Origin: an uncultured bacterium
GTDB lineage: Bacteria; Planctomycetota; SZUA-567; JAKLDR01
Direction of reading: 5' to 3'
DNA length: 64,000 nt
Assembly (NCBI GenBank): GCA_937935355.1
Contig: CALGYR010000006.1
Location: forward strand, 5,608 to 69,607
Shown here in pieces: positions 2,524 through 48,503 of this stretch (positions are counted from its first letter, which is position 1; each line of letters starts with the position of its first letter). A program made the translations under genes and the position numbers. The notes under the pieces were generated by a model. It had not been told where the DNA came from and made no database searches. It saw only the letters and a program-made list of their open reading frames with translations.

Positions 2524-2842
2524 GGAAACGATCCTCCCTGGGCCTTGCCGGCCCGGATCACGGGGTTTCGAGATGTCTGATCCCGTTTTTCAACCCCGGC
2601 GCCCGGCGCAGTTGCCGACCGGAGTAAGATGGAGGCCGCGTCGTCGTTCGGCCTCGAGGGGAGCGAGTCCCCAGCCAACGAAAGGATTCACCGTGGCCGC
2701 CAGACGCAGGACGACGCAGCGCTGAGCGGCCGTAGCGAAACCATGGTATCACCTGAACCCGTGCAGTTCAACTTCGATTCCGGCATCAATCCCACGAACA
2801 AGCAGTGCCCGTCGGTGTATAGGCATGCAGATGGGAGGCAGC

Positions 2843-3946
2843 ATGTCCAGCAGACAGAGAGCAGTTTGCGAGAGCGTTCCCACACGGTCTTCGGCGCAGC
2901 TCGCGGATCAACTCCGCGCCAGGATTTCCAAGGGAACTCTGGCCGGCGGCAGCTTCCTGCCCAGCGAGCGCGAGTTGGCCCGGGAGCAGAAAGTCAGCAG
3001 CAAGACCGCCCGGCGGGCGCTGAAGCTGCTCGAGTCCGAGGCGCTCATCGTCTCGGAAAGCCGCCGCGGCTACCGGGTGCTCTCGCGCGCCAACGACCCG
3101 GACCGGGGCTGCCCGATCGCCATGGTGATCGCCAATCCGCCCGAGTCCGGAGACCGCAGCTTCTACGGCAGCCTGCTGGGCGCGCTCCAGGACGCCGCCG
3201 GGCGCAGGGGCTGGTCGCTCTTGGGCGTGCAGCGCGAGGGGCGCCCGATTGGCGAGGTCGTCGAGCGCCTGCGTGCGGCCCGGGCTTGCGGCGCGGTGGT
3301 CGACTCGCTCGATACGGAACTGCTCGAGGCGGTCAGGCGCCTGGGCGTCCCGGTGGTGCTGGCCGACGCCTGGTTCGCCGACTCGCCCTGCGATGCGGTC
3401 GTCCAGGACGGCTTCGCCGGCGGGGTGCTGGCCGCGGAGTGGCTCGCCGGGCGCGGCCACCGGCGGATCGCCTTCCTGGGTCCGGACCCGCGGGGAGCGG
3501 ACATGCTGGTCGTCGAGCGCTTCTCCGGAGCGGTCGGTGGCCTGGCCCGCTCGGGCCTGGCGCTCGACCCGGGCCTGACCGCAGTGACGCGGCAGGGCGA
3601 TCCGGATGCGGCCGCCAGGTGCGCCCGGGAGTTGCTCTCCCGGGCGGACCGTCCCACCGCGGTGCTGGCCCTCTGGCAGGGCTTCGCCCGGGAGGCGGCC
3701 CGCGCCGCGCGCGAGCTGGGACTGGCCGTGGGCCGCGACCTGGACCTGGTCGGCTGGACGACGAGCCCGGCCCCCGGTGCGCCGGAGGCTACGGGCGCGG
3801 CCGGGCCGGAGCTCTCCGCGGAGGTGGTCTGGAGCCCCGCGGATCTCGCCGAGCTCTGCATTCTGCGCCTGATGCAGCGGCGGGCCGACCCGCGCATGCC
3901 GGCCTCGCTGACCCGCGTTCCGGTGCGGCTCGAAGTTCGCGGATAG
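2843..3946 (+). CDS. AraR-type transcriptional regulator (GntR-family HTH N-terminus + LacI/GalR-type periplasmic-binding-like effector domain), paralog 1
   Basis: GntR HTH 'LPSERELAREQKVSSKTARRALKLLESEALIVSESRRGYRV' followed by a LacI-type sugar-binding fold ('VVLADAWFAD...DAVVQDGFAGGVLAAEWLAGRGHRRIAFLG'). ATG 2843 is preceded by GGGAGG; alternative ATGs at 2825 and 2831. The stop TAG lies directly upstream of the next gene's RBS. Confidence 0.8.
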   Translation: MSSRQRAVCESVPTRSSAQLADQLRARISKGTLAGGSFLPSERELAREQKVSSKTARRALKLLESEALIVSESRRGYRVLSRANDPDRGCPIAMVIANPPESGDRSFYGSLLGALQDAAGRRGWSLLGVQREGRPIGEVVERLRAARACGAVVDSLDTELLEAVRRLGVPVVLADAWFADSPCDAVVQDGFAGGVLAAEWLAGRGHRRIAFLGPDPRGADMLVVERFSGAVGGLARSGLALDPGLTAVTRQGDPDAAARCARELLSRADRPTAVLALWQGFAREAARAARELGLAVGRDLDLVGWTTSPAPGAPEATGAAGPELSAEVVWSPADLAELCILRLMQRRADPRMPASLTRVPVRLEVRG

Positions 3947-3957
3947 GGAGGACGAAG

Positions 3958-5190
3958 ATGATCGTGAGAAGTCTGCCGATGCTTCCGGCTCTGTTGCTCG
4001 TTGGCCTCGTGGGCGCGCTCGCGGCAGAGCCCCCGGCCAAGGGCCCTCTGGCCGACCGGCCCTCGAAGCCGGGGCCGCACCTCGAGAAGGTGAAGGCCCT
4101 CGGCGACAACGCCTGGGTGAACCTGGGCAAGCCCGCGCCCGACCCCAAGTACGGCCCGGCCCAGGGGCGCTCATGGAGCCGCAAGATGGCCTTTGCGCCG
4201 GACCTGCGCGGGGCCTTCATCTACGGCGAGGGCGTCCACGGCGGCGCCTCGACGCGCGGCGGGAAGCGCTTCTACAACGACGACCTCTTCTTCTACGACA
4301 TCAACGCCAACGCCTGGGTCTGCTGCCATCCGGGCACGCCGCTGGACGACCCGGGGCTGACCTACGACAAGGAGCTCGGCTGCGAGAGGGATAAGAACGG
4401 GGACATCATCCCGGTGGCGGTCAGCGTCCACGCCTACTGGACGCCGGACTACGACACCGACCGGAAGATGTTCACGATGATGCCCTCGCCGGCCTCGCTC
4501 TACTGGCGCAAGGAGCTCGAGAAGTTCCGCCCCTATTTCAAGGAGAAGGGCAACTCCGACCCGCGCTGGGGCGGCTACGGCAGCCCCTGGTACTGGGACC
4601 CGCGCACCGGCAAGTGGGAGTTCCGGCGCGTCAAGGGCCCGGCCCCGGTCTGCAACGTGGACAACGTCTACTTCTACTCGCGCAAGCTCAAGAAGGGCGT
4701 GAACCTCTTCCGCGGCGTCTGGCTCTACGACCACGCGGAGAACTCCTGGAAGAAGGTGAACGAGGCCGGCGGCGGCAACGGGGCCTACTGCTATGATCCC
4801 AAACGCGAGTGGATCTACGCGGTCGGCGCCGACCGCAACGACGGCGGGAGGAACAAGCTCTCGGTCCTGGACATCGCCAGCGGAAAGTGGACGAAGATCG
4901 AGGCCGAGGGCGACGCCGGCACCGGAATGGAGTCGAATCAGGCCTTCTTCGCCTACGACTCGGTCAACGACGTCGTGGTCTTCCACATCCATGACCGGCA
5001 CCACATCTACGTTCCGGACGCGAGGAAGTGGACCGTGCTGCCCTCGACGCTCCCCGAGAAGGTGCGCTGGGTCTCCGGCAGCGGCTTCTACGACCCGGAG
5101 ACCAACGCCCACTTCTACTTCAACGCCGGCGACAGCAACATCGGCCCCGGCAACATGTGGGCCTGGCGGTACGCCGGCGGCGGGCGCTGA
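3958..5190 (+). CDS. Secreted Kelch-like beta-propeller protein (paralog family member 1)
   Basis: ATG 3958 with RBS GGGAGGACGAAG; signal peptide 'MIVRSLPMLPALLLVGLVGALAA'. Family-specific N-terminal motif 'GPHLEKVKALGDNAWVNLGKPAPDPKYG' and C-terminal 'NAGDSNIGPGNMWAWRY' shared with the paralogs at 36361, 37811 and other paralogs. The supplied ORF 2629..5190 has a spurious 443-aa Arg/Gly-rich N-extension. Confidence 0.8.
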   Translation: MIVRSLPMLPALLLVGLVGALAAEPPAKGPLADRPSKPGPHLEKVKALGDNAWVNLGKPAPDPKYGPAQGRSWSRKMAFAPDLRGAFIYGEGVHGGASTRGGKRFYNDDLFFYDINANAWVCCHPGTPLDDPGLTYDKELGCERDKNGDIIPVAVSVHAYWTPDYDTDRKMFTMMPSPASLYWRKELEKFRPYFKEKGNSDPRWGGYGSPWYWDPRTGKWEFRRVKGPAPVCNVDNVYFYSRKLKKGVNLFRGVWLYDHAENSWKKVNEAGGGNGAYCYDPKREWIYAVGADRNDGGRNKLSVLDIASGKWTKIEAEGDAGTGMESNQAFFAYDSVNDVVVFHIHDRHHIYVPDARKWTVLPSTLPEKVRWVSGSGFYDPETNAHFYFNAGDSNIGPGNMWAWRYAGGGR

Positions 5191-5207
5191 GACGGGAGGA
5201 GTCCACG

Positions 5208-7871
5208 ATGAAGACCGCCTGCATCATCGGCATCCTGGCGCTCGCGGCCTGCGCCGTCCCCGCGGCCGAGCCCGCGGCGCCCTCCGGGGCCGTGATCCTC
5301 GACGAGAACAGCCACTGGCGCCTGGAGCGCACCTGGGTGCCGGGCCTGGCCAGGACCTCCGACGGGCGGCTGGTGCCGCTGGTCCCCGGCGCCGGCCTCA
5401 AGGGTCCGGCCCACGCCCTGGTCTTCAAACCGGCGCCCGGCGAGAAGTACGAGATGCCCAGTTGGCCGGCGCTGCCCGGGGACTGGGCTGCCCCGGGCTT
5501 CGACGACTCGCACTACGCGCTCCACCGCGGCCCGGTCAGCGTCAACGACTGCTACTCCATGCGGAGGGCCTTCACGCCACGCTGGGGCTTCAGCCTGGCC
5601 CGGATGCGCGGGCGCTTCGCGGTCGATGATCCTGCCGCGGTCGGGGACCTCAAGCTCGACCTGGTCTACCAGGGGGGTGCCGCCGTCTACCTCAACGGCG
5701 CCGAAGTGGCCCGCGGCGGACTTCCCGAGGGCGAGGTCGCGCCCGAGGCTCCGGCGGCGGACTACTCCGACGCCGAGACCGCCCGCCATAACGAGTGGGT
5801 GCGCTGCGACAAGATGGACCGGAAGCTGAGCGGGGTCGTCATCCCGGCGGCCAGGCTGGTCAAGGGCGTCAACGTCCTGGCCATCGAGGTCCACCGCGCG
5901 CCCATGCCCGAGAAGATGCTCAAGGACAAGAACAACTGGATTCCGCTGGAGCTCGTCTCGGTCCGGCTGAGCGCGGCTTCCGGCGCAGGGCTGGTGCCCA
6001 ACGGGGGCAAGCCCGCGGGCCTCTCCGTGTGGACCGGCGAGCCGACCTACTGCGTGCGGGTCGACGACCCCGGAGACCGGAGCCAGGCCGAGCCGCGGCC
6101 GATCCGGATCGCCGCCTGCCGGAACAGCACGTTCTCCGGGCAGGCGGTGATCTTCAACGACCAGCCCCTGGGCGCGGTCAGAGCGACGGTCGGAGAACTT
6201 GCGACCGCCGACGGCGCCAAGCTTCCGGCCTCGGCCTGCCAGGTGCGCTACTCCAAGCCCGACCGCCGGGGCGGCGGTGTGGAGACCGGGGTCTACGGAC
6301 CCTACAACGACATGAACTGGTTCGACGCGCTCGAGGAGGATCCGCCCGCCGAGGTCCCGCTGCGCTTCTTCCAGCCAAAGCCGCACCTGCCCAAGCAGAT
6401 GCACCTGGCCGTTCAGCCGGTTTGGCTCACCGTGCGTGTGCCGGCCGACGCCAAGCTTGGAGAGTACAAAGGACAGCTGGCCCTCGAGATAGCCGGGCAG
6501 AGCACCGTGAAGGTGCCCGTCGAGGTCAAGGTCCACGGCTTCCAGCTGCCGGACCCGAAGGAGTTCGCCACGTTCCTGGAGATGCACCACTCGCCGGAGA
6601 CGCTGGCCTACTACTACAAGGTCCCGATCTGGAGCGAGGAGCACTGGAAGCTCCTGGAGCGGTCCTTCGAACTTTCGGCGCGCGCCGGCAACAAGCTGAT
6701 CTTCATCCCGCTCTTCGCCCGCGCGCGCTTCGGCAACGATCACGGCATGCTGCGCTTCGTCAAGAAGGGAGACGACTGGGACTACGACTTCTCGATCGTC
6801 GAGCGCTACCTCGACCTGGCCATGAAGCACTTCGACCGCAACATGGTGGTAGTCTGGCACATCACCGAGCCGGCCCACGAGGACAACTACTGGAAGATCC
6901 GCCACGGGGGCAAGGTCGAGCCGCAGAAACATCCCCAGGTGACGGTAGTCGACCCCAAGGACGGGAGCCTCTCGCTCTTCAAGGCTCCGCTCTTCGGCAC
7001 GCAGGAGTCCCGCGACTTCTGGAAGCCGGTCTGCGCGCGGATCGCCGAGCTCGTCAAGAAGAAGGGCCTGACCAGGCGGGCGCTGGTCCTCGGCACCGAG
7101 CAGGACCTGGGCGTGAGCAAGGGCTTCCTCGACGACCTCAGGAACATCGCCCCCGGCTTCAAGTGGTCCCGGTGCACGCACCCGGCGCCGCCGCCGAGCC
7201 TGAAGTACCCCAACGGACTGGAGCTGGGCTACGCCAGCGACGTCTACGGCGGTGCGCTCCACCGCCCGCCCGAGCAGCAGCGCTGCTACGGCTGGATGTG
7301 GCGCGACGACGAGAACCTGGGCGTCCACGCCCACTGGCCGCGGAACTCCATGACCGACCATGCCTCCCTGTCGAAGATCCACCAGGTCATGGAGACGCAC
7401 CTGGTCAGCAGCCCCTACGCCATCGAGGAGTACGCCTACGCGGGGCTGTCCTACCAGGGGGCTGACTTCTGGGTCATTCCCGGCGTGAAGTCCAGGATGG
7501 ACAACGGCCGGGTCGGCACGCTCATCGACCGCTTCCCGGAGGCGATCTGGGGCTCGATCTCGATCGGCAACGGAGCGGTCTCCTGGCTGGCCCCCGGCCC
7601 CAACGGGACGATCTCCACGGCCCGCTTCGAGGTCCTCTGCGAGGGCATCCAGGAGGCCAACGTCCGGGTGTTCATCGAGCGGGCGCTGACCGACCCCGCC
7701 GCGCGCGCCAAGCTCGGCGAAGATCTGGCCGCGAAGGCGCAGGCGGTCCTCGACGAGCGCTTCCGGTTGCTCTATCCCCACCGGTTCATGGAGACCGCCT
7801 CCGGCGTCGGCGCGCGGCGGGAGAAGCTGCTCGCCGCCGCCGACGAGGTGGCCGCCCGGCTGGGGAAGTAG
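5208..7871 (+). CDS. Secreted DUF4091-like glycoside-hydrolase-like protein (paralog of 34370..36331)
   Basis: ATG 5208 after GGGAGGAG; signal peptide 'MKTACIIGILALAACAVPAAEP'. Conserved block 'QPVWLTVRVPADAKLGEYKGQLALEIAGQSTVKVPVEVKVHGFQLPD' matches 'QPVWLTVLVPADAAPGVYRAEVTVSAEGLAATKVPLGIKVYGWTMPD' in the paralog. The DUF4091/GH-like assignment is from memory of that family motif. The N-terminal extension in the ORF track is rejected. Confidence 0.7.
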   Translation: MKTACIIGILALAACAVPAAEPAAPSGAVILDENSHWRLERTWVPGLARTSDGRLVPLVPGAGLKGPAHALVFKPAPGEKYEMPSWPALPGDWAAPGFDDSHYALHRGPVSVNDCYSMRRAFTPRWGFSLARMRGRFAVDDPAAVGDLKLDLVYQGGAAVYLNGAEVARGGLPEGEVAPEAPAADYSDAETARHNEWVRCDKMDRKLSGVVIPAARLVKGVNVLAIEVHRAPMPEKMLKDKNNWIPLELVSVRLSAASGAGLVPNGGKPAGLSVWTGEPTYCVRVDDPGDRSQAEPRPIRIAACRNSTFSGQAVIFNDQPLGAVRATVGELATADGAKLPASACQVRYSKPDRRGGGVETGVYGPYNDMNWFDALEEDPPAEVPLRFFQPKPHLPKQMHLAVQPVWLTVRVPADAKLGEYKGQLALEIAGQSTVKVPVEVKVHGFQLPDPKEFATFLEMHHSPETLAYYYKVPIWSEEHWKLLERSFELSARAGNKLIFIPLFARARFGNDHGMLRFVKKGDDWDYDFSIVERYLDLAMKHFDRNMVVVWHITEPAHEDNYWKIRHGGKVEPQKHPQVTVVDPKDGSLSLFKAPLFGTQESRDFWKPVCARIAELVKKKGLTRRALVLGTEQDLGVSKGFLDDLRNIAPGFKWSRCTHPAPPPSLKYPNGLELGYASDVYGGALHRPPEQQRCYGWMWRDDENLGVHAHWPRNSMTDHASLSKIHQVMETHLVSSPYAIEEYAYAGLSYQGADFWVIPGVKSRMDNGRVGTLIDRFPEAIWGSISIGNGAVSWLAPGPNGTISTARFEVLCEGIQEANVRVFIERALTDPAARAKLGEDLAAKAQAVLDERFRLLYPHRFMETASGVGARREKLLAAADEVAARLGK

Positions 7872-7963
7872 CCCGGCCGACGGCCTGGAATCCGCCGCCG
7901 GCCCGGCCTAGAATCCTTCCGGCCGCGGCGACCGGCGGCGGCCATGAGGAGGCGCGCCCAGCC

Positions 7964-9301
7964 ATGCCCGGACCAAACCTGCTCTTCGTCTTCGGCGACC
8001 AGTGGAGGGCGCAGGCCCTCTCCCACGCCGGCGACCCGAACCTGGCCACGCCGAATCTCGACGCCTTCGCGGCCTCGGGCGTGCGCTTCACCAACGCGGT
8101 GAGCAACTCGCCGGTCTGCAGCCCGCACCGGGCTACGCTGATGACCGGGCTCTACCCGCACCTCAACGGCATGGTGGCCAACGACCAGTGCCTGGCCGCC
8201 AACTGCCCCGGACCGTACCTGGCCGAGTGCCTGGCGGCCGGCGGCCATCAGACTGCCTACATCGGCAAGTGGCACATCGATGGCCGCGGCCGCCGGCGCT
8301 TCGTGCCGCCCGAGCGCCGGCTGGGCTTCGGGCTGTGGCGGGGCTTCGAGTGCAACCACGACTACTGGGACGCGCCGTGCTACGGCGACTCGCCCGAGCC
8401 CGAAACCCTTCCCGGCTACGAGAGCTTCGCCCAGGTGGAGCTCGCCCGCCGCTTTCTGGCCGGGCAGGCCCGCGAGCCCTTCGCGCTCTTCCTGTCCTGG
8501 GGGCCGCCGCACGACCCCTATGGCACGGCGCCCGAGGAGTTCCGCTCGCGGCACCGGCCGGAGGACGTGCTTCTGCGCCCCAACGTCCCGGCCGCGGCCG
8601 AGGCCGTCGCGCGCAAGGAACTGGCCGGCTACTACGCGCACTGCGAGGCGCTGGACCTGGCCTTCGGCCGGCTGCTGGCCGCACTCGAGGAGACCGGGCA
8701 CGCGCGCGACACGGTGGTGATCTTCACCGCCGACCATGGCGACATGCTCGGCAGCCAGGGCTTCTTCCGGAAGCAGCGGCACTACGACGAGTCGGTCCTG
8801 GTGCCCATGCTGGTCCGCGACCCGCGGCGCACTCTCGGGCCGGCCGCCGTGGAGGCGCCCATCTCCACGATCGACCTGATGCCCACGCTGCTGGGCCTTG
8901 CCGGCTGCGAGGTCCCCGAGCGGTGCCAGGGGCGCGACTGGACGCCGGCGATCCGCGAGGGCGCCGCGCCGCCGGTCGACGCGGCGCTCCTGGCCTGCCA
9001 CGCGCCCTTCCATCAGTACACGGCGGCGAAGGGCGGCCGGGCCTACCGGGGGGTGCGCACAGCGCGGCACACCTACGTGCGCTTCATCGACGGAGTCCGG
9101 CAGCTCTTCGACAACGCCGCCGACCCGTACCAGATGCGCGACCTGGCGGCCTCGCCGGAGCACGCCGGTACGATGGCGGAGCTCGAGTCGCGCCTGGCCG
9201 CGCTTCTCAAGGAAGCCCGCGACCCGTTCGAGCCGCCCGAGGAGCTCTTCCGGCGCTGGTCGGTGCGGCTCAACGCCAGGGGCGAAGTCTACTACGACTG
9301 A
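7964..9301 (+). CDS. Sulfatase (arylsulfatase family, Cys-type formylglycine motif), no signal peptide
   Basis: 'SPVCSPHRATLMTGLYP' (C-x-P-x-R sulfatase signature), 'IGKWHI', 'VIFTADHGDMLG'. Starts 'MPGPNLLFVFGDQ' without a signal peptide. Confidence 0.9.
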   Translation: MPGPNLLFVFGDQWRAQALSHAGDPNLATPNLDAFAASGVRFTNAVSNSPVCSPHRATLMTGLYPHLNGMVANDQCLAANCPGPYLAECLAAGGHQTAYIGKWHIDGRGRRRFVPPERRLGFGLWRGFECNHDYWDAPCYGDSPEPETLPGYESFAQVELARRFLAGQAREPFALFLSWGPPHDPYGTAPEEFRSRHRPEDVLLRPNVPAAAEAVARKELAGYYAHCEALDLAFGRLLAALEETGHARDTVVIFTADHGDMLGSQGFFRKQRHYDESVLVPMLVRDPRRTLGPAAVEAPISTIDLMPTLLGLAGCEVPERCQGRDWTPAIREGAAPPVDAALLACHAPFHQYTAAKGGRAYRGVRTARHTYVRFIDGVRQLFDNAADPYQMRDLAASPEHAGTMAELESRLAALLKEARDPFEPPEELFRRWSVRLNARGEVYYD

Positions 9302-12507: not shown

Positions 12508-14871
12508 TCACGGGTTCGATGCCATCCAGGCCGCCTTGTCGCCGGGCTGGATCTCGCCGGTGACTCGAACCAGTTCCGCCATGGCGCTGTTCGGCTGGAC
12601 GCCGACCACTCTGGCGGTGGCGATCTTGTTGCCGGCGCGCTCGATCTCGAACTCGAAGCCGGTCTTCACGCCCTGCTCGAAGCCGGCGTCGAGAATCGCC
12701 TTGCCGTCCGGGACGAGGTCGGCCACCGCGCAGGTGATGCCCTTGCCCGCCGCCGCCCCGCCTTTGTCGTCACGCGCAGGATCTGGCTTGTAGAGCCACA
12801 CCTTGCTGCCCGCCCACATGGTTACGCCGTACTCCGGGATGAACGTTACCACCTCGAACTTGACATTGACATCGTCGGTGATCGGCCGGTACTCGTCCAT
12901 TTTGCTGTCGAACTCCACCAGCCGTTTCCCCGAGTGGAACAGGTAGCGGCCCGAGAGCGGGTCCACCGTCAGAGAGTCGTTCCGGATGGTCAGACTGTCC
13001 GTAGACGGGAAATCCTTCATCTTCCTGAACTTGCCGTCCTTGTCTATTACGGCGACGGCGTGCGAGTCGTTCCCGCCGGCGAAGAGCACCTCCTGGCGGA
13101 AAGGATTGTGCCGGGCCAGGCTGTGGTAGCCGTGAACGGGGAACTTCCCCAGATTCTGCCAGGCCTTTTTCTCCTCGCTGTACGCCGAGAGACCTTCGCC
13201 CCTCTCCAGGGAGAGAAGGCAGTCCATGGCCGAGAAGTATTCCCAGGTCATGCCGCCGCCGCCGCTGGGAACATTGGACCACTTGCCGGTGCGGATGTCG
13301 TAGCACGCGCCGCTGGTGAAGAAACGGCTTCTCTCGGAGTCCAGGGAGTTTTGCGAGTACTGATGGCCGAACTTCTGCAGAATCGCCGGCGCGTTCGGCT
13401 CCCCATCGAAGGGGATGTTCCGCCAGGCGTTCTTCTCCTCGGAGTAGGCCACCAGCTTGCGCGACTGGCGCACCCCGAAGTACAGGCACTGCCCCGTATG
13501 GCTGTCCCAGTGGGCGTCGTCCGACCAGGTCGCGATGCTCAGCCCCTTGGAGGGGCCGACCTTGGGGGCGCCCCAAAGCCCCGCGGGCATCTCGGTCTTG
13601 AGCTCGGCCCAGTCGCCGGGCTTCATCGAGGCGGCCAGCTTGGAAAGCTCGGTCTTGCCGCGCCGGGCCTCCGACGCCTTCCTGGCGGCCTCGTTACCGG
13701 GAATCCAGGCGCCGCCGCCGGGCTGGGCCGATCCCGCCTGTGACGCCGGTTGAGCCACTACGCGGAACCGCGTCGCAGCCCTGTCGCCGACCTGGACTTG
13801 GCCCGTGGCGCTGACCAACTCGGCGATGGCGGTCTTGGGCTCGACGGCGGTGACTCTGACTATGCCGACCTTCTGGCCATCGCGATCGACGTCCAGCTCG
13901 AAGTCCGGCCTGAGTCCCTGGTCCGCGCCGGCCGAGAGTTCCACCCTGCCGCCGCCAAGCAGGGCGGTCACCCGGCACTCGAGGACATCGTCTTTCGCCG
14001 CCGTCCCGACCTTTTGGATCGTGGATTCGGCCGCCAGAAGTCTGGTCGCCAACGCCCCGCCCCCGCCGACGACGGCCAACACCGCCGCGCAGACGGCTGC
14101 CGCCACCTTGATCTTCGTCCAGAACATCATCCTCAGCACTCCTTCCGCCAATTGCACGGGCACGGCATACTGTGCCCCCGCGATCCCTGCCGCCCCCGTC
14201 GCGACGCCGGTCGCCGCGAGCTTCGAGGTCGCCAGGATGGATGGAAGGAGCGCGGCGGGCATCGCTGCGCCGGCCTCGGCGTCGAGGACTGCGATGAGCC
14301 CCGCAGCCGAAAGCACCGCACCGTGCTGCGCCAGCCGCTCGCGCAGGCGGTCCAGGCCGATCTGCGCCCGGCGGGCCAGTGTCCCCTGCGGGCAGCCCGC
14401 CAACCGCGCGGCCTCCTCCTGGGAATGGCCCTCGAGGTAGCGGAGGAGCACCGCCTGGCGCTGGGCGGACGGCAGGGCGTCGATCTCGCGGTCGAGCATG
14501 GCCAACGCCTCGTTCCTGCCCGACTCGCCTCCCGCCTCCCGCCCCCCGTCCCCGCCCTGCACCGGCCTGATCATGGCCGCCTCCTCTTCGTGCCGGATGC
14601 GGCGGGCACGGCTCCGGACAGCCATGCGCCCAACGTTGCCGGCCACTCCGTGGAGCCATCCTGCCAGGCTCGCCACTGGGCGGAACGCACGGGGCTCTCT
14701 GGCCAGGGCCAGGAAGACGGCCTGCGTGGCCTCCTCGGCGTCGTGTCCGTTGCCGAGCAGGCGCAGGCAGGTCCGGTAGACCATCCGGCTGTGGCGGGAG
14801 ACGAGCTCGGCGAAGGCCGCCTCGCTCCCGCCGGACGCGTAGTCCGCCAGCAGTTCCTGGTCCGTACGCAT
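12508..14871 (-). CDS. ECF sigma-70 factor fused to a transmembrane helix and an extracytoplasmic Kelch-like beta-propeller flanked by two copies of a ~65-aa domain
   Basis: N-terminus 'MRTDQELLADYASGGSEAAFAELVSRHSRMVYRTCLRLL...QAVFLALAREP' (sigma-70 region 2) and '...LPSAQRQAVLLRYLEGHSQEEAARLAGCPQGTLARRAQIGLDRLRERL' (region 4). Then TM 'IKVAAAVCAAVLAVVGGGGAL', then a propeller ('...GVTMWAGSKVWLYKPD'), in one uninterrupted 788-799-aa frame. Start is uncertain: ATG 14871 chosen; TTG 14907 and ATG 14901 are alternatives. Confidence 0.75.
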   Translation of the reverse strand: MRTDQELLADYASGGSEAAFAELVSRHSRMVYRTCLRLLGNGHDAEEATQAVFLALAREPRAFRPVASLAGWLHGVAGNVGRMAVRSRARRIRHEEEAAMIRPVQGGDGGREAGGESGRNEALAMLDREIDALPSAQRQAVLLRYLEGHSQEEAARLAGCPQGTLARRAQIGLDRLRERLAQHGAVLSAAGLIAVLDAEAGAAMPAALLPSILATSKLAATGVATGAAGIAGAQYAVPVQLAEGVLRMMFWTKIKVAAAVCAAVLAVVGGGGALATRLLAAESTIQKVGTAAKDDVLECRVTALLGGGRVELSAGADQGLRPDFELDVDRDGQKVGIVRVTAVEPKTAIAELVSATGQVQVGDRAATRFRVVAQPASQAGSAQPGGGAWIPGNEAARKASEARRGKTELSKLAASMKPGDWAELKTEMPAGLWGAPKVGPSKGLSIATWSDDAHWDSHTGQCLYFGVRQSRKLVAYSEEKNAWRNIPFDGEPNAPAILQKFGHQYSQNSLDSERSRFFTSGACYDIRTGKWSNVPSGGGGMTWEYFSAMDCLLSLERGEGLSAYSEEKKAWQNLGKFPVHGYHSLARHNPFRQEVLFAGGNDSHAVAVIDKDGKFRKMKDFPSTDSLTIRNDSLTVDPLSGRYLFHSGKRLVEFDSKMDEYRPITDDVNVKFEVVTFIPEYGVTMWAGSKVWLYKPDPARDDKGGAAAGKGITCAVADLVPDGKAILDAGFEQGVKTGFEFEIERAGNKIATARVVGVQPNSAMAELVRVTGEIQPGDKAAWMASNP

Positions 14872-14994
14872 GGCCACAAAGTTACCCACCGCTCCCTCCA
14901 TCCGCAATGAAGTTGCCGGAGGGGGAGGCCGTGTTCAACGAAAGGCGGCGAATCCTGGAACCGCAACGGCCACGGACCATGCCGGGGAGACACC

Positions 14995-18110: not shown

Positions 18111-20781
18111 ACTTGTCCGCCGACGGCCGCCTTCCTCCGTCCGCCCCGAAAAACGCCTTTGTGCCAACGGGCACGTTCTTCAGCCGGAAGGCGACCATCT
18201 TGCCTGATCTGAGGCCGATGAAGACGTTGTGCTGCGGATCGAAGTCGAAGACGACCATTTGGAAATTGCCGTCGGCAGCCTTGCGCCATGTGTCGGTTTC
18301 CCTGTCATAGGCATAGGCCCCGGTCGAGCGGAGCACTGTCAGGTCGCGGTTCAACGAGTCGAAGACCATCTGCATGCCCTGGCTGCCGCGCTCCCCTTCG
18401 GGCAGCGGACTTTTCGACTTGCGGGCCGTGCCCGTCCCAGGACCCATCAGCCACACGCCGAAATCCTCCGGCGTCTGACCGGCGCGCTTCTTGTGGTTCC
18501 TGACCTCGCGCAGCACCAGGTCGGCAACCGGGTCGTACCCGGCGGCTTCGAATACATAGAATGCGTGCAGACGTGGCAAGCCCGCAAACGGAAGTTTGAC
18601 CAGGTTTTTCGTCCGGGTATCTATAGCGTCGGTGACCGGTCCCATGAACTCGTTGTAGACGTGTCCACGTCGAGAGTCGGCGATGTACCACTTCGGTCCC
18701 TCGCCGGTCGTGACCGTGGTTTGGGGGTAATGACCGTCGAAACGGTCCAGGGTCAAGTCGTAGGTGGCCGCGTCGGTGCGGCGGGTCATGTCCGTGGGAA
18801 ATCCGGTCGAATTGTTCATCCAGAACAGGCGCGATTGCCAGCAGTAGACCAGCCCCCTAGAACACCCGCGGCCGGCCCTGACTTCGTTGAAGAACAAACC
18901 GGACACCTCGTTGGGACGGATGACGAACTGCTTGCCGCTGGCCGGGTCGTAGCCGATGCACTCGTTCGAATAGCACATGTCACAGCCGCCGTAACGCAAC
19001 CACACTCCCGCACGGGCATCCACTGCGCAACGGGTCTCACCGTACGAGGCGACGGTCACCGCTTTGTCGAGGACGACCACTTTCCCGATCGGGAAATCGG
19101 CGCCGAATTGAGGGTTGACCGGGTTGTAGGCGGGAATAAACCCATCCAATTCCTTCCCGACGCGCGCGAGCAGTTCCGCATGTTCCTGTCCTCCCGCTTC
19201 GACTTCCCTGAGCATCGCCCAGGCGGAACGTCTGGGCAGGTACTCCTTCTCGCCTTCGAGAAGTGCGGCCAGCGCGCGGGCGGCCTCCGGTCCGCCTATG
19301 CGGCCAAGAGCCAGTGCCGCGCGGCTCCTTGTCACGCGGTTCGAGGACGAGAGTGCCCGGACCAGCGGCTGGACCGCCGCCAGCTGGGCGCTCTCGCCCA
19401 GGCCCCGTGCAGCGGCCGTCGCCGCGGAGAGATTCTCCGAGTCCAGCAGGGGGGCGATCCTGTCTATGGCGTCCGGCCCACCGATATAGCCGACGACCAA
19501 CGGCACCGAAAAGCCGCGAACAGTCAGAAACTTCTCCAGATATGGCAGGGCCGGCGGTCCGGAAAAGCGTGCCAGCAGAAACTCCGAATGGAGCATCCAG
19601 CGCTCGACGCCCAGCCGCGGGCCGAGTTCTTCGGCCAGAGCCTTGCCGTCGCACACCGCCGCCAGCGCGCGCTTGCCGACATCGGCGGAACTCCCCGATT
19701 GATTGCTTGCTGGCCAAGGCTGGCCGCGCCCGGCCAACTCGCGGAAGAATGCCGTCGCCGCGGAGCCGCCGGAGTAGTCCGCCAGGGCGGCTTTTGCCCG
19801 GATCTGGATGTGTTCGCTCTTGGTGGTTTTGCATAGCTCGATCAGCTTCACGATATCCTCCTCCGTCCCGAACGCCGCTATGAACGGGCCCGAATCCCGG
19901 GTGCCGATTTCATCGCGAACTGCGGCATCCCAATGTTTGGCCAGATCCGGTTTCTGGACGGGTCGCGGGACGGCCGTTGGGCTTTCCCAGCGACGCAGCG
20001 CCCTGGCAGCCGCCTGGCGCACCAGCAGGCTGGGGTCGCCCGAGAGTTTCTTCGCCACCGCCTGCCCCGAGCCGCAACCGGCCGCGAGCCGGGCCGCCGC
20101 CTCCCGCAGGGGCACATAAGACGAGCCGGCCAAGGCTTCGAGGGCCGCCGCCGTGATCGGGTCAGCGAAGGCCGCGCCCAGCGGTGCTTGCCACAGGCCG
20201 GCATCGCGAGGGGAGGCCCGCGAGTAGAGCTTGTCGCCGGCGACCCACCGGACAATGTTGAAGTCCTCCTCGCCGTCGAGCCGGCGCAGTGCGTGCGCAG
20301 CCGAAAGTGCCACAGCCGGGTCGCCCCCCGCCGCCGCCTTTGCCAGCGCCGGCCAGGCGCGCGCGTCCTTGAGCCAGCCCAGCAGCCACGCCGCGCGGAT
20401 CGCCTCCGCCCCGCCTGCCGACAGCTTTGCCTCGAGTTCCTTCCGCTTCGCTTCGTCCGGCCGGTGCGCCACCAACACCCCGCCGATCACCTCCACGCGG
20501 ATGCCCGTGCCTTTCTCGAAGTCAGCGGCTGGCTTCGATGCGGAGACGTTCTCGCCGCCGACACGACCGCGTCCGGAGATCCCGTCGACGGTCGCCCAGC
20601 GCAGCCCCGCTGCCTCCCCCAACCGCCAGGCGAACTCATGCTCGTTCCACCAGCGGGTCTCCAGCGAGACAGTGGTGGACAGCGATGGCTCCCCGGTCCG
20701 ACCGAACTTCGGGGCTGCGCACAGCCCGCTCAGCACGGCGAGGATGACGGCCGCAGTGTATCTCATCCCATGACGTTTCAT
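18109..20781 (-). CDS. Secreted HEAT-repeat protein with a C-terminal Kelch-family beta-propeller
   Basis: Signal peptide 'MRYTAAVILAVLSGLCAAP'. Repeated 'A...ALG.LG...A...L..LL.D....VR..AA.AL' HEAT/PBS-lyase-like units. C-terminal region homologous to the paralogs ('YDRETDTWRKAADGNFQMVVFDFDPQHNVF'). Start overlaps the regulator stop (ATGA). Confidence 0.7.
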   Translation of the reverse strand: MKRHGMRYTAAVILAVLSGLCAAPKFGRTGEPSLSTTVSLETRWWNEHEFAWRLGEAAGLRWATVDGISGRGRVGGENVSASKPAADFEKGTGIRVEVIGGVLVAHRPDEAKRKELEAKLSAGGAEAIRAAWLLGWLKDARAWPALAKAAAGGDPAVALSAAHALRRLDGEEDFNIVRWVAGDKLYSRASPRDAGLWQAPLGAAFADPITAAALEALAGSSYVPLREAAARLAAGCGSGQAVAKKLSGDPSLLVRQAAARALRRWESPTAVPRPVQKPDLAKHWDAAVRDEIGTRDSGPFIAAFGTEEDIVKLIELCKTTKSEHIQIRAKAALADYSGGSAATAFFRELAGRGQPWPASNQSGSSADVGKRALAAVCDGKALAEELGPRLGVERWMLHSEFLLARFSGPPALPYLEKFLTVRGFSVPLVVGYIGGPDAIDRIAPLLDSENLSAATAAARGLGESAQLAAVQPLVRALSSSNRVTRSRAALALGRIGGPEAARALAALLEGEKEYLPRRSAWAMLREVEAGGQEHAELLARVGKELDGFIPAYNPVNPQFGADFPIGKVVVLDKAVTVASYGETRCAVDARAGVWLRYGGCDMCYSNECIGYDPASGKQFVIRPNEVSGLFFNEVRAGRGCSRGLVYCWQSRLFWMNNSTGFPTDMTRRTDAATYDLTLDRFDGHYPQTTVTTGEGPKWYIADSRRGHVYNEFMGPVTDAIDTRTKNLVKLPFAGLPRLHAFYVFEAAGYDPVADLVLREVRNHKKRAGQTPEDFGVWLMGPGTGTARKSKSPLPEGERGSQGMQMVFDSLNRDLTVLRSTGAYAYDRETDTWRKAADGNFQMVVFDFDPQHNVFIGLRSGKMVAFRLKNVPVGTKAFFGADGGRRPSADK

Positions 20782-21935
20782 GACTGTGCCCCCCCTCTGT
20801 CCTGTCCCGCAACGCTTCTTGTCCCACCGTTCCCGAGGACGGCTCCAGCCTGTTCATCCGGCAGCCTCAGCCCGGCGGGAATCCTCAGCCGGACCGGCGG
20901 CAGCCCCGGCTGGGCGCGGCGCTGCTCGAGCCGGGCGATGGCCGCCTGGGCCATCCCGGTTAGGCTCCACGTCATCGCTGGCGCGATAGGCCCACCGCCG
21001 AACATAGGGCGGTATTCGCTTTCGTAGGACTCCTCGTCGCTCCATCCAACCATCTCGAAGTCCCGGCCCGGGACCAACCCCTCCTCGGCGGCGGCGCGGA
21101 CCAATCCGGCGGCGGGCACCTGCCAGAGCGCCAGGATACCCGTGGGGCGGTTCGGCGCGCGCAGCAGCCGCCGGGCGCACTCCAGCGCAGCGGCGCTGTC
21201 TTCCAGGGGCATCTCCATGCGAAGCTCCGGCTCCAGGCGCAGTCCGAGGGATGCCAGCCCGCCGATCGCCCCCAGCGTCCTTTCGATGATCTCTCGCGCG
21301 CCCCCAGCCAGTGCGTAGCCCAGCCAGCCGATGCGCCGGTGGCCACGGGCTGCAAGATGCGCGGCTGCGGCCATCGCCCCGGCGAAACCGTCCTGCGACA
21401 CCGAGTCGATATCCGGGCGTTCGTGCCAGGTGCCGACCAGCACGGCCGGTATGCCGTCTCGTTTCAGTTGGTCGAATAGCCTGGGATCGGAAACGTTGAG
21501 CAGCGCGCCCCAGGCCCGGGCCGACCGGAACTTGGCCACCAGTTCCTTCGGGGCCCCGTCACCGCGGGAAACCGCCAGCACCGACCGGCCCAGCTTGGTG
21601 GCCGCCTGCTGCAGCGCAGCCATGAGCTTGCGCTCGAATGGATCCCAGTCCTTCTCGTAGAACACCAGACCCAGCGGGCAGCCGCGGTCTGGATCGTTGG
21701 CTCGGGCCAGCACGCGGTAGCCCCGGCGGGGTTCACTACGGACCAAGCCCTCAGCCTCGAGGTGATGTAGCGCGCGCCCTACCGTTTCGGACGGCAGTCG
21801 GTATCTTGCACAGAGATCCCGCATCGTGGGCAGATACTCTCCGGAGCCGACCTTGCCTGACACAATCAGTTCCTTCATGACAGAAGAAAGCTCCCCCGAC
21901 CTTCTGCCTACGCCTGAGCCATGTGACCTGGTCAT
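20778..21935 (-). CDS. AraR-type GntR/LacI-hybrid transcriptional regulator, paralog 2
   Basis: 'MKELIVSGKVGSGEYLPTMRDLCARYRLPSETVGRALHHLEAEGLVRSEPRRGYRV' HTH plus a LacI-type domain ('GIPAVLVGTWHERPDIDSVSQDGFAGAMAAAAHLAARGHRRIGWLG'). ATG 21935 is preceded by AGGAGG; alternative ATG 21878. The stop overlaps the start of the downstream HEAT/Kelch gene. Confidence 0.8.
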   Translation of the reverse strand: MTRSHGSGVGRRSGELSSVMKELIVSGKVGSGEYLPTMRDLCARYRLPSETVGRALHHLEAEGLVRSEPRRGYRVLARANDPDRGCPLGLVFYEKDWDPFERKLMAALQQAATKLGRSVLAVSRGDGAPKELVAKFRSARAWGALLNVSDPRLFDQLKRDGIPAVLVGTWHERPDIDSVSQDGFAGAMAAAAHLAARGHRRIGWLGYALAGGAREIIERTLGAIGGLASLGLRLEPELRMEMPLEDSAAALECARRLLRAPNRPTGILALWQVPAAGLVRAAAEEGLVPGRDFEMVGWSDEESYESEYRPMFGGGPIAPAMTWSLTGMAQAAIARLEQRRAQPGLPPVRLRIPAGLRLPDEQAGAVLGNGGTRSVAGQDRGGAQS

Positions 21936-22180
21936 GTCCTGCCTCCTGACGTGGTAGTGAGCTATACACGTTGTTGACGATGTTGTTGCTGGCAAAACCG
22001 TGGATAACTCCAAAGGAGCCGGGGGATGGGGGCCAAGAGCAGTAGAAGCTCACGAGCAGAGGATCCTAGAGCAAAGCCTCTGCCATATATCCGGACAACA
22101 GGGCCGCGTGAGTTTCCAGGTCTGCCCCTCCCTGCACAGGCATCTCGTGCAGGTCTGGGGTGCGCCTACTTTGTCTAAAA

Positions 22181-24562
22181 CTAAAAACCTGTCGTGGCCT
22201 CGGGCAACGCCTTGATTCGGAAATAGTGTGTTCGTGGTGCGGCATTGGGCTCGACCCGCTCTACAAAGCTCTCGACCGTCAGTTGTTGGAGGTATTTGGT
22301 GGCGGTGTTGGGGGAGATCCCGAGTGTGGCAGCCACCTCTGCGCGGGTCATGCTCCGGTGCGCCCGAAAGAGTTCGCGAAGCCGGGCCAACCGACGCATT
22401 GGCGAACGCCCGCAGCGCAGTTCATCATCACCAGGCTTGTCGGCAGAAGGAATCGAAACGGCACTTGGGGTTGCCCAGCCTCTCCCGTCGGTCTTGTTGG
22501 CCTGCGTGGCCAGTGTGGATGCAGTCGTGGGTTGATCCGAACTGGCAGCCATTCCGGCCCCGGCTGCGATTCGGGGATCCAAGTGCATTAGCTCGTAAGC
22601 CGGCTGGTCCGAGTTCATCAGCCGCATGCGTTCCATCTCGTTGCGCAGCTCCCGGACGTTGCCTGGCCAGGAATAGGCCACCAGCGCGGCCCGCAACTCC
22701 GGGCTCATCGTCAGAAGTGCCCCGTCGGTGCGGTGCTCGCCCAAAAAGTGTCCGGCCAGGTTCAGGATGTCCTCGGCACGCTCCCGCAGCGGTGGCACGA
22801 CGATCTCCAGCCGCCTGAGCCGGTAGAGCAGATCCTGGCGGAAGCGCTCTTCGCCGACCATTCGCTCCAGGGGGGCGTTGGTCGCCGCCAAGACCCGGCA
22901 GGACACCTTGCGGCTCGTGGTGCTGCCCACCCGCCGGATCTCGCCAGTTTCGAGCACTCTAAGGAGCGTCACTTGCAGGCGCGGAGATATCTCGCCGATC
23001 TCGTCGAGCAACACTGTACCGGTTCCGGCTGCCTCGAAGAATCCCTGGTGGGCCTTGTCCGCGCCGGTGAAGGCTCCGCGCTCATAGCCGAAGAGCTCGC
23101 TCTCCAACAGCGAGTCGGTGAGCGCCCCGCAGTTGACAGCCACGAAGGGTTCAGCGGCGCGGGGGCCCTCCTCGTGGATGGCCCTGGCCACCAGTTCCTT
23201 ACCGGTGCCGGTTTCGCCGGTGATGAGCACGGGCATGTCGAGCTTCGCGGCGCGGCTGACGGTCTCGCGCAGAGCGACCATGGCGAGGCCTGCACCGATG
23301 AGCCGCGCTGCACCGGACGGCTGTGTCTTGACCGGTTCTGCCGGGACGGGAACCAGGACCGCAACGGAGGCGGCTGGGCTTGGTGTGGTGCCGGCTGGGT
23401 GGGGGGGGAGGGCTGCGCGCATTAGCCTGGCCGAGTCGGCCGCGGACATCTCGCAGGCCATGCGCAGCTCGATGTCCAGTCTTTCCAGGGCGTGGTAGCG
23501 TTCGCAGGCGTGGTAAGCGGTTGAGAAGAGCCTGCCGGCCTCATCACCCCGCCCGGCCAGCAGTTCCGCTCTGGCCAGGTAGAAATCGTCCAGGTAGTGC
23601 GTGTTGCCGCGCTCCCGCCGCAGGCGCAGCAGGCGGCGGGCGGCCTCCCCGCGACGCATGGCTAGCTCGCAACGGACCAGATTGAAGGCTTGGAAGTTCT
23701 GGCCGTACAGAAAGTCGGCGTTGGTCTTGACTGACTCCCGAGCCAACTGCAGGGCGTGCTCGGGCCGGCCGGCCAGCAATTCCCGGGTGGCCGCCAGGCT
23801 CGAGGAGAGGTTCTCGCCTGGCCGGCCCGCCAGCACGTCGGCCAAGGCAAGAAAATCCCGGATCGCCGGCTGGTCCCGGGGCGGCATCTTCTTCAGGCGC
23901 TCCCGGTCGACTTCTCGCAACCTGCCGACCTGTCCGGTATGGACGAAGTGAATAAGATAGATGGCCTCGCGTGTATTGTGTATGTCTTCGTGTTGGGGGC
24001 TGCGAAGGATCCGACAGTACTCGATCTCGATCTCGGCAAAGGTGCCAAAGTTGGCGAACAAGATGGCGAAGTCGCTATAGAACATCTGGTAACGAGGCGA
24101 ATCCTGCGGCACGATTTCGAGGGCCCGGCGGCGGAGTTCCAGGGACTGCTCCTTCTTGCCCACTGTGGCCGCCAACTGCGCCTCGGGAAGGAGCAACATG
24201 GCGATCAGTTCTGCCGGGGTATCGTCCGCAATCAGCAGTTTGGCCCGGTCACTGAGCACAGACGCTTGCGCCAAGCGGTTCCTGTTTATGGAGGTCATGA
24301 GCCAGTAGTGGAAGAAGAGAATCAGGAGGTTCGGGTCGCAGCCTTTGAGATCAAGTGAATCTGCAGTTTTCAGCGCCTCGTCATGCGCCTTCTCGTTACC
24401 GGTTATGGCGCCCGCCATCTCGAGGATGGCGCTGGCAATCGCTCCGTCGTTGCCAGCCTGTGGAGACTCGATTGCTTCACGGAATTCTTTGCGGCCCTTG
24501 AGGAAAGCCGCAACCAAGGGATGCAAAGGACGCGTAGGGTGTTTCTTTCTTGACAATGCCAT
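22181..24562 (-). CDS. Sigma-54-dependent transcriptional activator (enhancer-binding protein) with a ~400-aa N-terminal TPR-like sensory region and no receiver domain
   Basis: AAA+ sigma-54 interaction domain with 'ESELFGYERGAFTGA' (GAFTGA), Walker A 'ITGETGTGKE', 'VLLDEIGEIS'. C-terminal HTH 'TRAEVAATLGISPNTATKYLQQL'. RBS GGGAGG 5 nt before the ATG. Confidence 0.9.
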   Translation of the reverse strand: MALSRKKHPTRPLHPLVAAFLKGRKEFREAIESPQAGNDGAIASAILEMAGAITGNEKAHDEALKTADSLDLKGCDPNLLILFFHYWLMTSINRNRLAQASVLSDRAKLLIADDTPAELIAMLLLPEAQLAATVGKKEQSLELRRRALEIVPQDSPRYQMFYSDFAILFANFGTFAEIEIEYCRILRSPQHEDIHNTREAIYLIHFVHTGQVGRLREVDRERLKKMPPRDQPAIRDFLALADVLAGRPGENLSSSLAATRELLAGRPEHALQLARESVKTNADFLYGQNFQAFNLVRCELAMRRGEAARRLLRLRRERGNTHYLDDFYLARAELLAGRGDEAGRLFSTAYHACERYHALERLDIELRMACEMSAADSARLMRAALPPHPAGTTPSPAASVAVLVPVPAEPVKTQPSGAARLIGAGLAMVALRETVSRAAKLDMPVLITGETGTGKELVARAIHEEGPRAAEPFVAVNCGALTDSLLESELFGYERGAFTGADKAHQGFFEAAGTGTVLLDEIGEISPRLQVTLLRVLETGEIRRVGSTTSRKVSCRVLAATNAPLERMVGEERFRQDLLYRLRRLEIVVPPLRERAEDILNLAGHFLGEHRTDGALLTMSPELRAALVAYSWPGNVRELRNEMERMRLMNSDQPAYELMHLDPRIAAGAGMAASSDQPTTASTLATQANKTDGRGWATPSAVSIPSADKPGDDELRCGRSPMRRLARLRELFRAHRSMTRAEVAATLGISPNTATKYLQQLTVESFVERVEPNAAPRTHYFRIKALPEATTGF

Positions 24563-26127: not shown

Positions 26128-26157
26128 AGTGCAGGGCTCCACTCAGGAGGGCGGAAA

Positions 26158-26361
26158 ATGATGATCAGCGCGGTGCAGATTGGCATGGTCCCTGCTCTGC
26201 GGAGGATCCTCAGCCTGACGCGGTTTCCGCTGAGGGGCCGAGCAAGGTGGACCGGGAGGCCCAGCGTCGGGGAGGGGCCGCAATGGTCACCCGGCCGGTC
26301 CAAGCGGAGCGAGCTGGCCGCCTGCCTGCCGTGCTACACCTGCGGAGGCAGCCGCAGATGA
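26158..26361 (+). CDS. Candidate 67-aa precursor-like peptide with C-terminal 'AACLPCYTCGGSRR' (Cys-x2-Cys-x2-Cys)
   Basis: ATG 26158 is 7 nt after AGGAGGG. GC3 is ~85% in this frame against ~68% in the overlapping N-extension frame of the next gene. The stop overlaps the ATG of the acyltransferase (ATGA). Same frame and strand as the radical-SAM gene, 30 nt downstream of its stop. Confidence 0.35.
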   Translation: MMISAVQIGMVPALRRILSLTRFPLRGRARWTGRPSVGEGPQWSPGRSKRSELAACLPCYTCGGSRR

Positions 26362-27272: not shown

Positions 27273-27387
27273 AGCGCGTAGCGCTGCCGTTCCGCAGGCT
27301 GCGTTGGGGGGCGAAGCAGCCAACCGAGGATCGAGGGGCGGGCAATCTTGCTGGCACCGCTAACGGTTACGAAGGGAGCGCAGTCTC

Positions 27388-34319: not shown

Positions 34320-34369
34320 CTTCGTCCTCCCTCGAGTTGACATGGCAGCCCTCTTCTCTTGCGTCTCAT

Positions 34370-36331: not shown

Positions 36332-36360
36332 CTTCGTCCTCCCGTCAGAACCCTCGGATC

Positions 36361-37722: not shown

Positions 37723-37810
37723 CTTTCCCTTCTCCTTGCTTTGGCAAAAGCACATCCCCTGCCTCCAGCAGGCCGCTTTTAACGGCCTGCCAGTTCTTCT
37801 GGCGCCTTCT

Positions 37811-39169: not shown

Positions 39170-39191
39170 GAGTCTTTCTCCCCTCTCTGGT

Positions 39192-48420: not shown

Positions 48421-48503
48421 GTGCGTTCCCGCCTCTTTCCCAGCTCCGGCTCCAGCCCCCGGACCCCAGACCCGAGCCCCGAGACCCGAGACCCTTCTCG
48501 CCG

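Follow-up and report, generated by a model that had tools for sequence, protein, structure and literature searches.

The window analysed here is a stretch of 64,000 nucleotides (nt) from contig CALGYR010000006.1 of an uncultured planctomycetal bacterium. On its minus strand lies a gene in which an extracytoplasmic function (ECF) sigma factor runs on, without a stop, into a transmembrane (TM) helix and a large extracytoplasmic region. The question raised by this locus is how a sigma factor anchored in the membrane by its own chain is held inactive and set free, and what its outer part may sense. The gene is a membrane-anchored sigma/sensor fusion. The reading favoured here, with a probability of roughly 0.55, is that it encodes an auto-inhibited, membrane-tethered ECF sigma factor with an ectodomain sensor, which would be released by regulated proteolysis as in IutY of Pseudomonas putida.

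A sigma factor and its ectodomain in one open reading frame

The features of the gene are as follows; aa denotes amino acid positions.

12508..14907, minus strand: whole open reading frame (ORF), 799 aa from a TTG codon, with the stop at 12508-12510
14575..14862, minus strand: sigma region 2 (σ2), aa 16-111 in the structural model; Pfam Sigma70_r2 at aa 35-103, E = 4e-12; conserved Cys47
14326..14532, minus strand: sigma region 4 (σ4), aa 126-194; Pfam Sigma70_r4_2 at aa 137-182, E = 5e-10; conserved Cys172
14212..14322, minus strand: conserved linker helices, aa 196-232 (helices 201-212 and 220-232), a candidate built-in anti-sigma element
14176..14211, minus strand: flexible stretch rich in Gly and Ala, aa 233-244, of low conservation and varying length
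14029..14175, minus strand: long predicted helix, aa 245-293, with the amphipathic juxtamembrane motif LAEGvLRMMFWTKIK and the TM segment with its GGGG cluster
14032-14112, minus strand: TM core, aa ~266-292, the sole strong hydrophobic segment (Kyte-Doolittle value up to 2.22)
13759..13995, minus strand: small domain, N copy, aa 305-383, a predicted six-stranded FlgT-C/MreC-like β-barrel adjoining the membrane, with the invariant Cys311
12763..13710, minus strand: Kelch-like β-propeller, aa 400-715, corresponding in full to the mature chain of a family of stand-alone secreted proteins of ~360 aa
12517..12750, minus strand: small domain, C copy, aa 720-797, of the same predicted β-barrel family, with Cys726

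The ORF contains no stop and no change of frame, and the modules follow each other in the order σ2, σ4, conserved linker, one TM helix, small β-barrel, Kelch-like propeller and second barrel. Translation probably begins at the GTG at 14889, which has a GGAGG before it at a spacing of 5 nt; the resulting product is the deposited one of 793 aa. The first-pass annotation had described a sigma factor, a TM helix and a propeller bracketed by two homologous small domains in one frame, and the uninterrupted ORF, the Pfam matches, hydropathy and BLASTP all agree with this description. Two contigs encode an identical 793-aa protein, one of 80 kb from the metagenome-assembled genome (MAG) GCA_036768975.1 at NCBI and the other the independently assembled ENA contig ERZ724101 NODE_3926. 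The N-terminal part is matched by 116 database proteins, 74 of which align from about query residue 13 to at least residue 285 and thereby cover sigma factor, linker and TM helix; at least 15 homologues have the sigma-TM-barrel order. The G+C content at third codon positions (GC3) is 0.84-0.93 in every module. A stop or hidden frameshift between the sigma domain and the TM region, at residues 190-260, had been considered at the outset; it is excluded because the ORF is intact and identical in two assemblies and the same junction is found across homologues.

No second full-length homologue with the barrel-Kelch-barrel fusion was found in protein searches or in a scan of 185,579 species genomes. 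A scan for sigma-70 promoters and terminators around the gene gave nothing useful; a GAAC-containing stretch lies upstream and is not counted as an ECF promoter.

Sigma-70 regions 2 and 4, as originally annotated, are both matched by Pfam, and the NCBIfam model TIGR02937 (sigma70-ECF) scores 71.1 bits against a cut-off of 42.9. Pfam gives no match to σ1.1 or σ3, leaving σ2 and σ4 only, as is characteristic of ECF (group 4) sigma factors. Group ECF57 is described as having two conserved cysteines, one each in σ2 and σ4, and WD40-like repeats in the extension that are prevalent in some members (PMC8999054). Both of these hallmark residues are present in the query (Cys47 and Cys172); in the alignment of 88 sequences Cys47 is found in 63, Cys172 in 52 and both together in 46, most of the closest homologues included. 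The extension of ~600 aa after σ4 and the lack of a cognate anti-sigma gene nearby are also as in ECF57, while Pfam finds no WD40 repeats in the extension, which is Kelch-like instead. The fusion protein is thus a probable member of ECF57. The resemblance to planctomycetal WD40 fusions that had been pointed out earlier reflects true homology, as the sigma-linker-TM part aligns end to end with that of WD40-bearing proteins such as P0036, P0038 and P0040. For such WD40-bearing ECF fusions the older name ECF01-Gob was reportedly used by Jogler et al. in 2012. After the common sigma-linker-TM part the homologues have divergent C-termini, with WD40, HEAT, serpin, PQQ, TIGR03435/DUF3738, Cys-rich ribbons or unannotated domains. 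Planctomycetal ECF duplications are known to conserve σ2 and σ4 while the C-terminal extensions are unrelated and the gene context is not conserved (Pinto & da Fonseca 2020, PMC7671368), and ECF57 has 5.3 copies per planctomycete genome (Casas-Pastor et al., PMC7826278).

Linker, membrane helix and ectodomain

The ~70 aa described in the first-pass annotation as a linker do lie between σ4 and the TM helix. They are not a passive tether; the segment is conserved, confidently folded in the model and probably part of an anti-sigma function. In the alignment of 88 sequences (A7) the conservation is 0.90 for G196, 0.85 for L204, 0.84 for L208 and 0.92 for P217. The AlphaFold2 model of aa 1-300 has a mean predicted local distance difference test (pLDDT) score of 86 and a predicted template modelling (pTM) score of 0.81. 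The blocks that hold the two linker helices reach pLDDT 90-97, on par with the sigma domains, and the 10-residue blocks over aa 231-250 have means of 62-66. The model aligns with the sigma/anti-sigma complexes CnrH-CnrY (122 residues, 4.0 Å), RpoE-NepR (127 residues, 4.8 Å) and RpoE-ChrR (119 residues, 4.9 Å), and SigG1, an auto-inhibited case, is likewise among the structures akin to it. The ECF sigma factors SigE, SigH and SigL in their RNA polymerase (RNAP)-bound form align only at 13.8-18.5 Å. For these reasons the model is taken to represent a closed state, in which σ2 and σ4 are arranged as in sigma/anti-sigma complexes, and the two linker helices may constitute a minimal fused anti-sigma element.

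The proposal of a single TM helix after the linker is in agreement with hydropathy, which gives one strong segment. Residues 245-293 are modelled as a single helix comprising the juxtamembrane and TM parts (pLDDT 84-89), and the juxtamembrane motif in A7 is L253-A-x-G-x-x-K-x-M-x-W-x-K-x-K267. Among 91 homologues the mean number of Lys and Arg is 2.7 in the 14 residues before the TM segment and 1.05 in the 12 residues after it, and the topology is therefore N-in/C-out. The TM segment is rich in Ala, Val and Gly, with at least two Gly or Pro residues in 88 of the 91 homologues and GGGG in the query. Helix-destabilising residues in the TM segment of a substrate favour cleavage by RseP-type site-2 proteases. 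The conserved Gly cluster is an indirect hint of intramembrane proteolysis.

The stretches of 67 aa first quoted as the duplicated domain are aa 311-377 and 726-792, and 29 of the 67 residues are identical. With BLASTP the N and C copies show 43% identity over 70 aa without gaps (E = 1e-20), which is far beyond chance and settles their homology. The domain had been called unknown. It is indeed duplicated, and structure prediction now assigns it to a fold: the AlphaFold2 model built from 62 aligned sequences is an all-β unit of six strands (pLDDT 90) with the features of a six-stranded β-barrel, and the top Foldseek ranks for this model are FlgT (8z5n, 3w1e) and MreC. Pfam FlgT_C (PF16538) scores 19.5 bits, below its gathering cut-off of 27, and matches three of eight barrel copies at E≤10 (best E 7e-4); a profile search of the PDB gave a weak match to TsaP. 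According to the model the small domain is an FlgT-C/MreC-like periplasmic β-barrel, a fold that serves protein-protein assembly beside the inner membrane. It differs from the FlgT C-terminal domain and the MreC barrels in its marginal sequence similarity to them, in having no flagellar or cell-shape context and in forming a large separate sequence family. When 1.84 billion representatives were searched exhaustively with a profile, 994 clusters came up at E≤1e-3; in these the barrel is found as one copy right after a TM segment (sigma fusions), as 2-4 tandem copies (lipoproteins) or at the end of proteins with a TM segment and a coiled coil.

The nearest relatives of the C copy are the barrels next to the membrane in other sigma fusions, with 49-53% identity (53% to P0002, 52% to P0003) as compared with 43% to the N copy of its own protein. 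It is therefore an old duplicate of the barrel belonging to the sigma-linker-TM cassette. The strand-1 cysteine, invariant in eight aligned sigma-fusion barrels (A2), is kept in both copies. With codons at 13975-13977 (C311) and 12730-12732 (C726), an intramolecular disulfide is conceivable, and single-barrel relatives might form disulfide-linked dimers.

In some other sigma fusions (P0019, P0256, P0247, P0024) the barrel seems to be a host for inserted domains and tolerates large inserts just before its last β-strand, for example a Cys-rich zinc-ribbon-like insert in one case and an insert of ~200 aa in another. An origin of this kind for the propeller, as an insert inside one barrel as in P0019 and P0247, was considered and rejected, since two complete barrels are present. 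A further family of unannotated proteins (P0292, P0293, P0303, P0246) has an N-terminal TM segment, a long coiled coil and the same barrel last, with the C-terminus ...GDxAWTRLP; this is an MreC-like organisation.

The Kelch-like propeller proposed between the barrels is below the Kelch_1 cut-off when the single sequence is searched with Pfam (E = 0.016, 15.1 bits against 20.1). A profile of 22 family sequences matches the PDB structure of the six-bladed designed Kelch protein SAKe6 at E = 7e-11; for Keap1 and KLHL the E-values are ~0.01-0.06. A search with the ectodomain found 184 proteins, nearly all of them 'hypothetical proteins' of ~340-400 aa without a Pfam domain, 46-79% identical to aa ~400-715. 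In these stand-alone members an N-terminal signal peptide precedes the mature chain. The start of that chain (YLPGGEEVKKAVEARRGKTELSKLAASMKPG...) is equivalent to query residue ~400 and its end (...VxLYKH) to residue ~715, and the fusion therefore holds the whole mature protein. The stand-alone members have 99 family columns with a conservation of 95% or more, and the fusion keeps 94 of them.

The stand-alone members are found in Planctomycetia, Pirellulaceae, Phycisphaeraceae, Victivallales and Verrucomicrobiota and in one gammaproteobacterial MAG, often in tandem. Several of the genes adjoin GntR/Peripla_BP_3 regulators, Kelch-like proteins, Laminin_G or transglutaminase-core proteins, or a lyase of type PL14. 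At six relatives' loci (L023 4679-10125; L006, L009, L012, L016 and L017) the stand-alone propeller occurs together with similar-sized unannotated genes in tandem arrays of up to five, adjoined by a transglutaminase-core gene, divergent Kelch genes and a GntR regulator with a periplasmic-binding-protein (PBP) domain.

The sensor module had been assigned to a Kelch family expanded within the window. This assignment did not hold. Against the window's Kelch genes (3958-5190, 31683-34343, 36364-40328 and 46381-49311 were compared) the propeller gave no tblastn match at E<1e-3, and hhalign gave partial alignments with probabilities of 16%, 8% and 72%. An origin as a local paralogue of these genes was rejected on both comparisons, and the true family of the propeller is that of the unannotated stand-alone secreted proteins.

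Proposed activation by proteolysis and the alternatives

In the mechanism that we favour, the linker helices would hold σ2 and σ4 closed and unable to engage RNAP in the resting state, acting as a minimal fused anti-sigma factor, and the TM helix would keep the protein at the membrane. The ectodomain would sense an extracytoplasmic cue, probably a glycan or a glycan-processing partner. A cue of this type is proposed because the propeller's stand-alone relatives are encoded in clusters under GntR control, along with Kelch, glycoside hydrolase (GH) and polysaccharide lyase (PL) genes; a glycan-related ligand for the propeller itself is a guess. Since the N- and C-termini of a propeller are adjacent and would bring the barrels together, the two barrels might pair within the molecule, and single-barrel relatives would pair between two molecules. 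The signal would then expose the ectodomain to site-1 cleavage, after which a site-2 protease (M50/RseP-type) would cut the TM helix with its many Gly residues. Once set free, the sigma-linker part would finally be trimmed in the cytoplasm to an active sigma factor, by a route that has been demonstrated for IutY.

IutY, which belongs to ECF243, is the best mechanistic model by analogy. It too has a sigma factor, an inhibitory cytoplasmic segment, a single TM helix and a periplasmic domain in one chain, and its activation by sequential proteolysis, with Prc and then RseP, has been demonstrated (PMC5411451, PMC8999054). Unlike the query, which has no FecR match and belongs to a different ECF group, IutY has an FecR-type anti-sigma/periplasmic domain and relays the signal of a TonB-dependent receptor. 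SCO4117 of Streptomyces coelicolor (ECF52) is similar in that the ECF sigma factor has a C-terminal extension with TM helices and an extracytoplasmic carbohydrate-binding domain, and a model of proteolytic activation has been proposed for it (PMC8999054). The ECF52 proteins are actinobacterial and have a zinc-finger (ZAS-like) anti-sigma segment and a Pro-rich region, neither of which is found in the query. Among the known systems, the WD40 fusions of ECF57 share with the query a sigma core that is homologous end to end, both cysteines and the absence of an anti-sigma gene nearby, and they occur in multiple copies with variable extensions in planctomycete genomes (PMC7826278, PMC7671368). They differ in that the extension of the query is barrel, Kelch-like propeller and barrel rather than WD40. 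In the ECF57 literature found, the extension is regarded as a possible protein-interaction module, and the linker helices, the TM cassette and the FlgT-like barrel are not described.

Several points weigh against the proteolytic mechanism and its glycan cue. No protease gene is linked to the fusion locus. An M50 gene lies near the genes for P0002 and P0003, with a tRNA synthetase gene in between, and may be coincidental. None of the anti-sigma Pfam models (RskA, zf-HC2, FecR) matches the linker, and NCBIfam gives no match either. The link of the propeller family to glycan loci is one of gene context and indirect, and one stand-alone member (Motiliproteus) is in an unrelated gene context. The pairing of the barrels is a conjecture. 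To our knowledge no member of this family, or of the planctomycetal ECF sigma factors with transmembrane extensions in general, has been studied experimentally.

The first alternative, which we regard as unlikely, is that the protein is never cleaved and that the sigma factor recruits RNAP while tethered, in the manner of ToxR or CadC. The ectodomain would in that case modulate activity through a change in conformation or oligomeric state that is relayed by the TM helix and the flexible stretch of ~12 residues. The Gly/Ala segment at aa 233-244, which separates the folded cytoplasmic unit from the juxtamembrane helix, could give the necessary reach, and the barrels are of a kind that forms oligomerisation modules in known contexts; the absence of a protease at the locus would also fit. 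However, the closed σ2/σ4 arrangement of the model is incompatible with binding of core RNAP, and the tether from the folded unit to the membrane is short. The Gly/Pro-rich TM segment, a near-constant feature of the homologues, fits a substrate of an intramembrane protease, and proteolytic activation is demonstrated for one and proposed for the other of the only fused sigma/anti-sigma proteins studied experimentally, IutY and SCO4117 (PMC8999054).

It is less likely still that the gene is an evolutionary by-product, formed when a duplicated sigma-linker-TM-barrel cassette landed beside or inside a secreted propeller gene, and that it has no sensing role or is decaying. 'Fortuitous insertion' is the term of Pinto & da Fonseca 2020 (PMC7671368), and the C-terminal extensions in this clade are of multiple unrelated origins and have no conserved gene context (PMC7671368). 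The exact fusion is moreover restricted to this organism in the protein searches and genome scan described above. A by-product of this kind is at odds with the retention of the family-conserved positions in the propeller and the uniform GC3, and a complete second barrel in frame after the propeller is not expected from random read-through. More distant sigma-TM-propeller fusions (P0017, P0018) indicate that the combination recurs. An assembly or sequencing artefact, with two genes joined by a frameshift or a chimeric contig, is highly improbable, as no point in its support was found and it conflicts with the identical product on two independent contigs, the junction uninterrupted in homologues from many assemblies and the sigma-TM-barrel proteins.

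Gene neighbourhood and meaning of the fusion

The statement that no anti-sigma gene is adjacent was correct; the neighbours encode a protein with major facilitator superfamily (MFS) and tetratricopeptide repeat (TPR) parts and a LarA-like protein. The former, a 946-aa MFS-like and TPR gene, lies directly upstream of the sigma fusion on the same strand with a gap of 88 nt. P0002 and P0003, its closest relatives, have gene neighbourhoods unrelated to that of the fusion gene. These two sigma-TM-barrel fusions, which are paralogues or orthologues, share a synteny (L025 1284-8953, L026 619-5043) of Peptidase_M50 (~232 aa), tRNA-synt_1b (Trp/Tyr-type), the fusion and UvrB. P0003 is probably a paralogue in the same organism, because it comes from the same ENA sample and has the same coverage (8.6 as compared with 8.4 for the query contig).

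The window contains six Kelch-repeat genes. A cassette of a GntR/Peripla_BP_3 hybrid regulator, one or more Kelch-like propeller genes and a GH123 gene occurs twice, at 2843-9301 (plus strand) and 31683-41473 (minus strand), and looks like a type of planctomycetal glycan-utilisation locus. The first copy includes a sulfatase, and a sixth Kelch protein (46381-49311, minus strand) and a GH4 gene (41713-43044, plus strand) lie nearby. The 853-aa ORF at 2629-5190 is really the 410-aa Kelch gene at 3958-5190 read through upstream.

At 18112-24562 (minus strand) there is a sigma-54 activator of 793 aa, of which the N-terminal ~420 residues are unannotated. After it come a GntR/PBP regulator and an 890-aa HEAT-repeat protein, whose genes overlap by 4 nt, and then the MFS-like and TPR gene mentioned above. 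At 24769-31515 (plus strand) there are a radical-SAM protein, an FeeM-like N-acyl amino acid synthase and a 1376-aa protein with a CN_hydrolase domain, PKD/Big/cadherin-like domains and five Calx-beta domains.

Fusions of this kind are already known, and the diversity of their extensions has been published; the barrel-Kelch-barrel ectodomain has not been described previously. The fusion reveals no new signalling principle. Its added interest is in the candidate minimal anti-sigma element, in the FlgT/MreC-like barrel as a part of the cassette in a subfamily, and in the tie to a large unannotated propeller family.

A wider reading can be offered tentatively, and we consider it somewhat unlikely as a whole: the sigma factor, the two-helix linker, the amphipathic helix and the Gly-rich TM segment would form a portable cassette, with an unrecognised minimal anti-sigma factor of its own, that is attached to captured secreted proteins, here one of a very abundant Kelch-like family tied to glycan-utilisation clusters under GntR control, with the barrels as an intramolecular dimer. 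If this is true, planctomycetes and neighbouring phyla make new one-component transmembrane sensors by capture. The protein would then be an ECF-based glycan sensor, with a logic analogous to that of the ECF/anti-sigma regulators of polysaccharide utilisation loci in Bacteroidetes, and with the barrel duplicated, a dimer between molecules would give way to one within a single chain, possibly with a disulfide bond between C311 and C726.

Planctomycetes have an abundance of ECF sigma factors in which the C-terminal extension is transmembrane. In the present fusion every module can be assigned; the linker is a concrete candidate for the missing anti-sigma function, the TM segment looks like a site-2 protease substrate, and the sensor is a whole, recognisable secreted protein, whose stand-alone relatives, hundreds of them and without a Pfam family, are found in putative glycan-degradation clusters. 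The fusion thus gives a handle both on how this class of sigma factors is switched and on what a widespread, unannotated propeller family binds.

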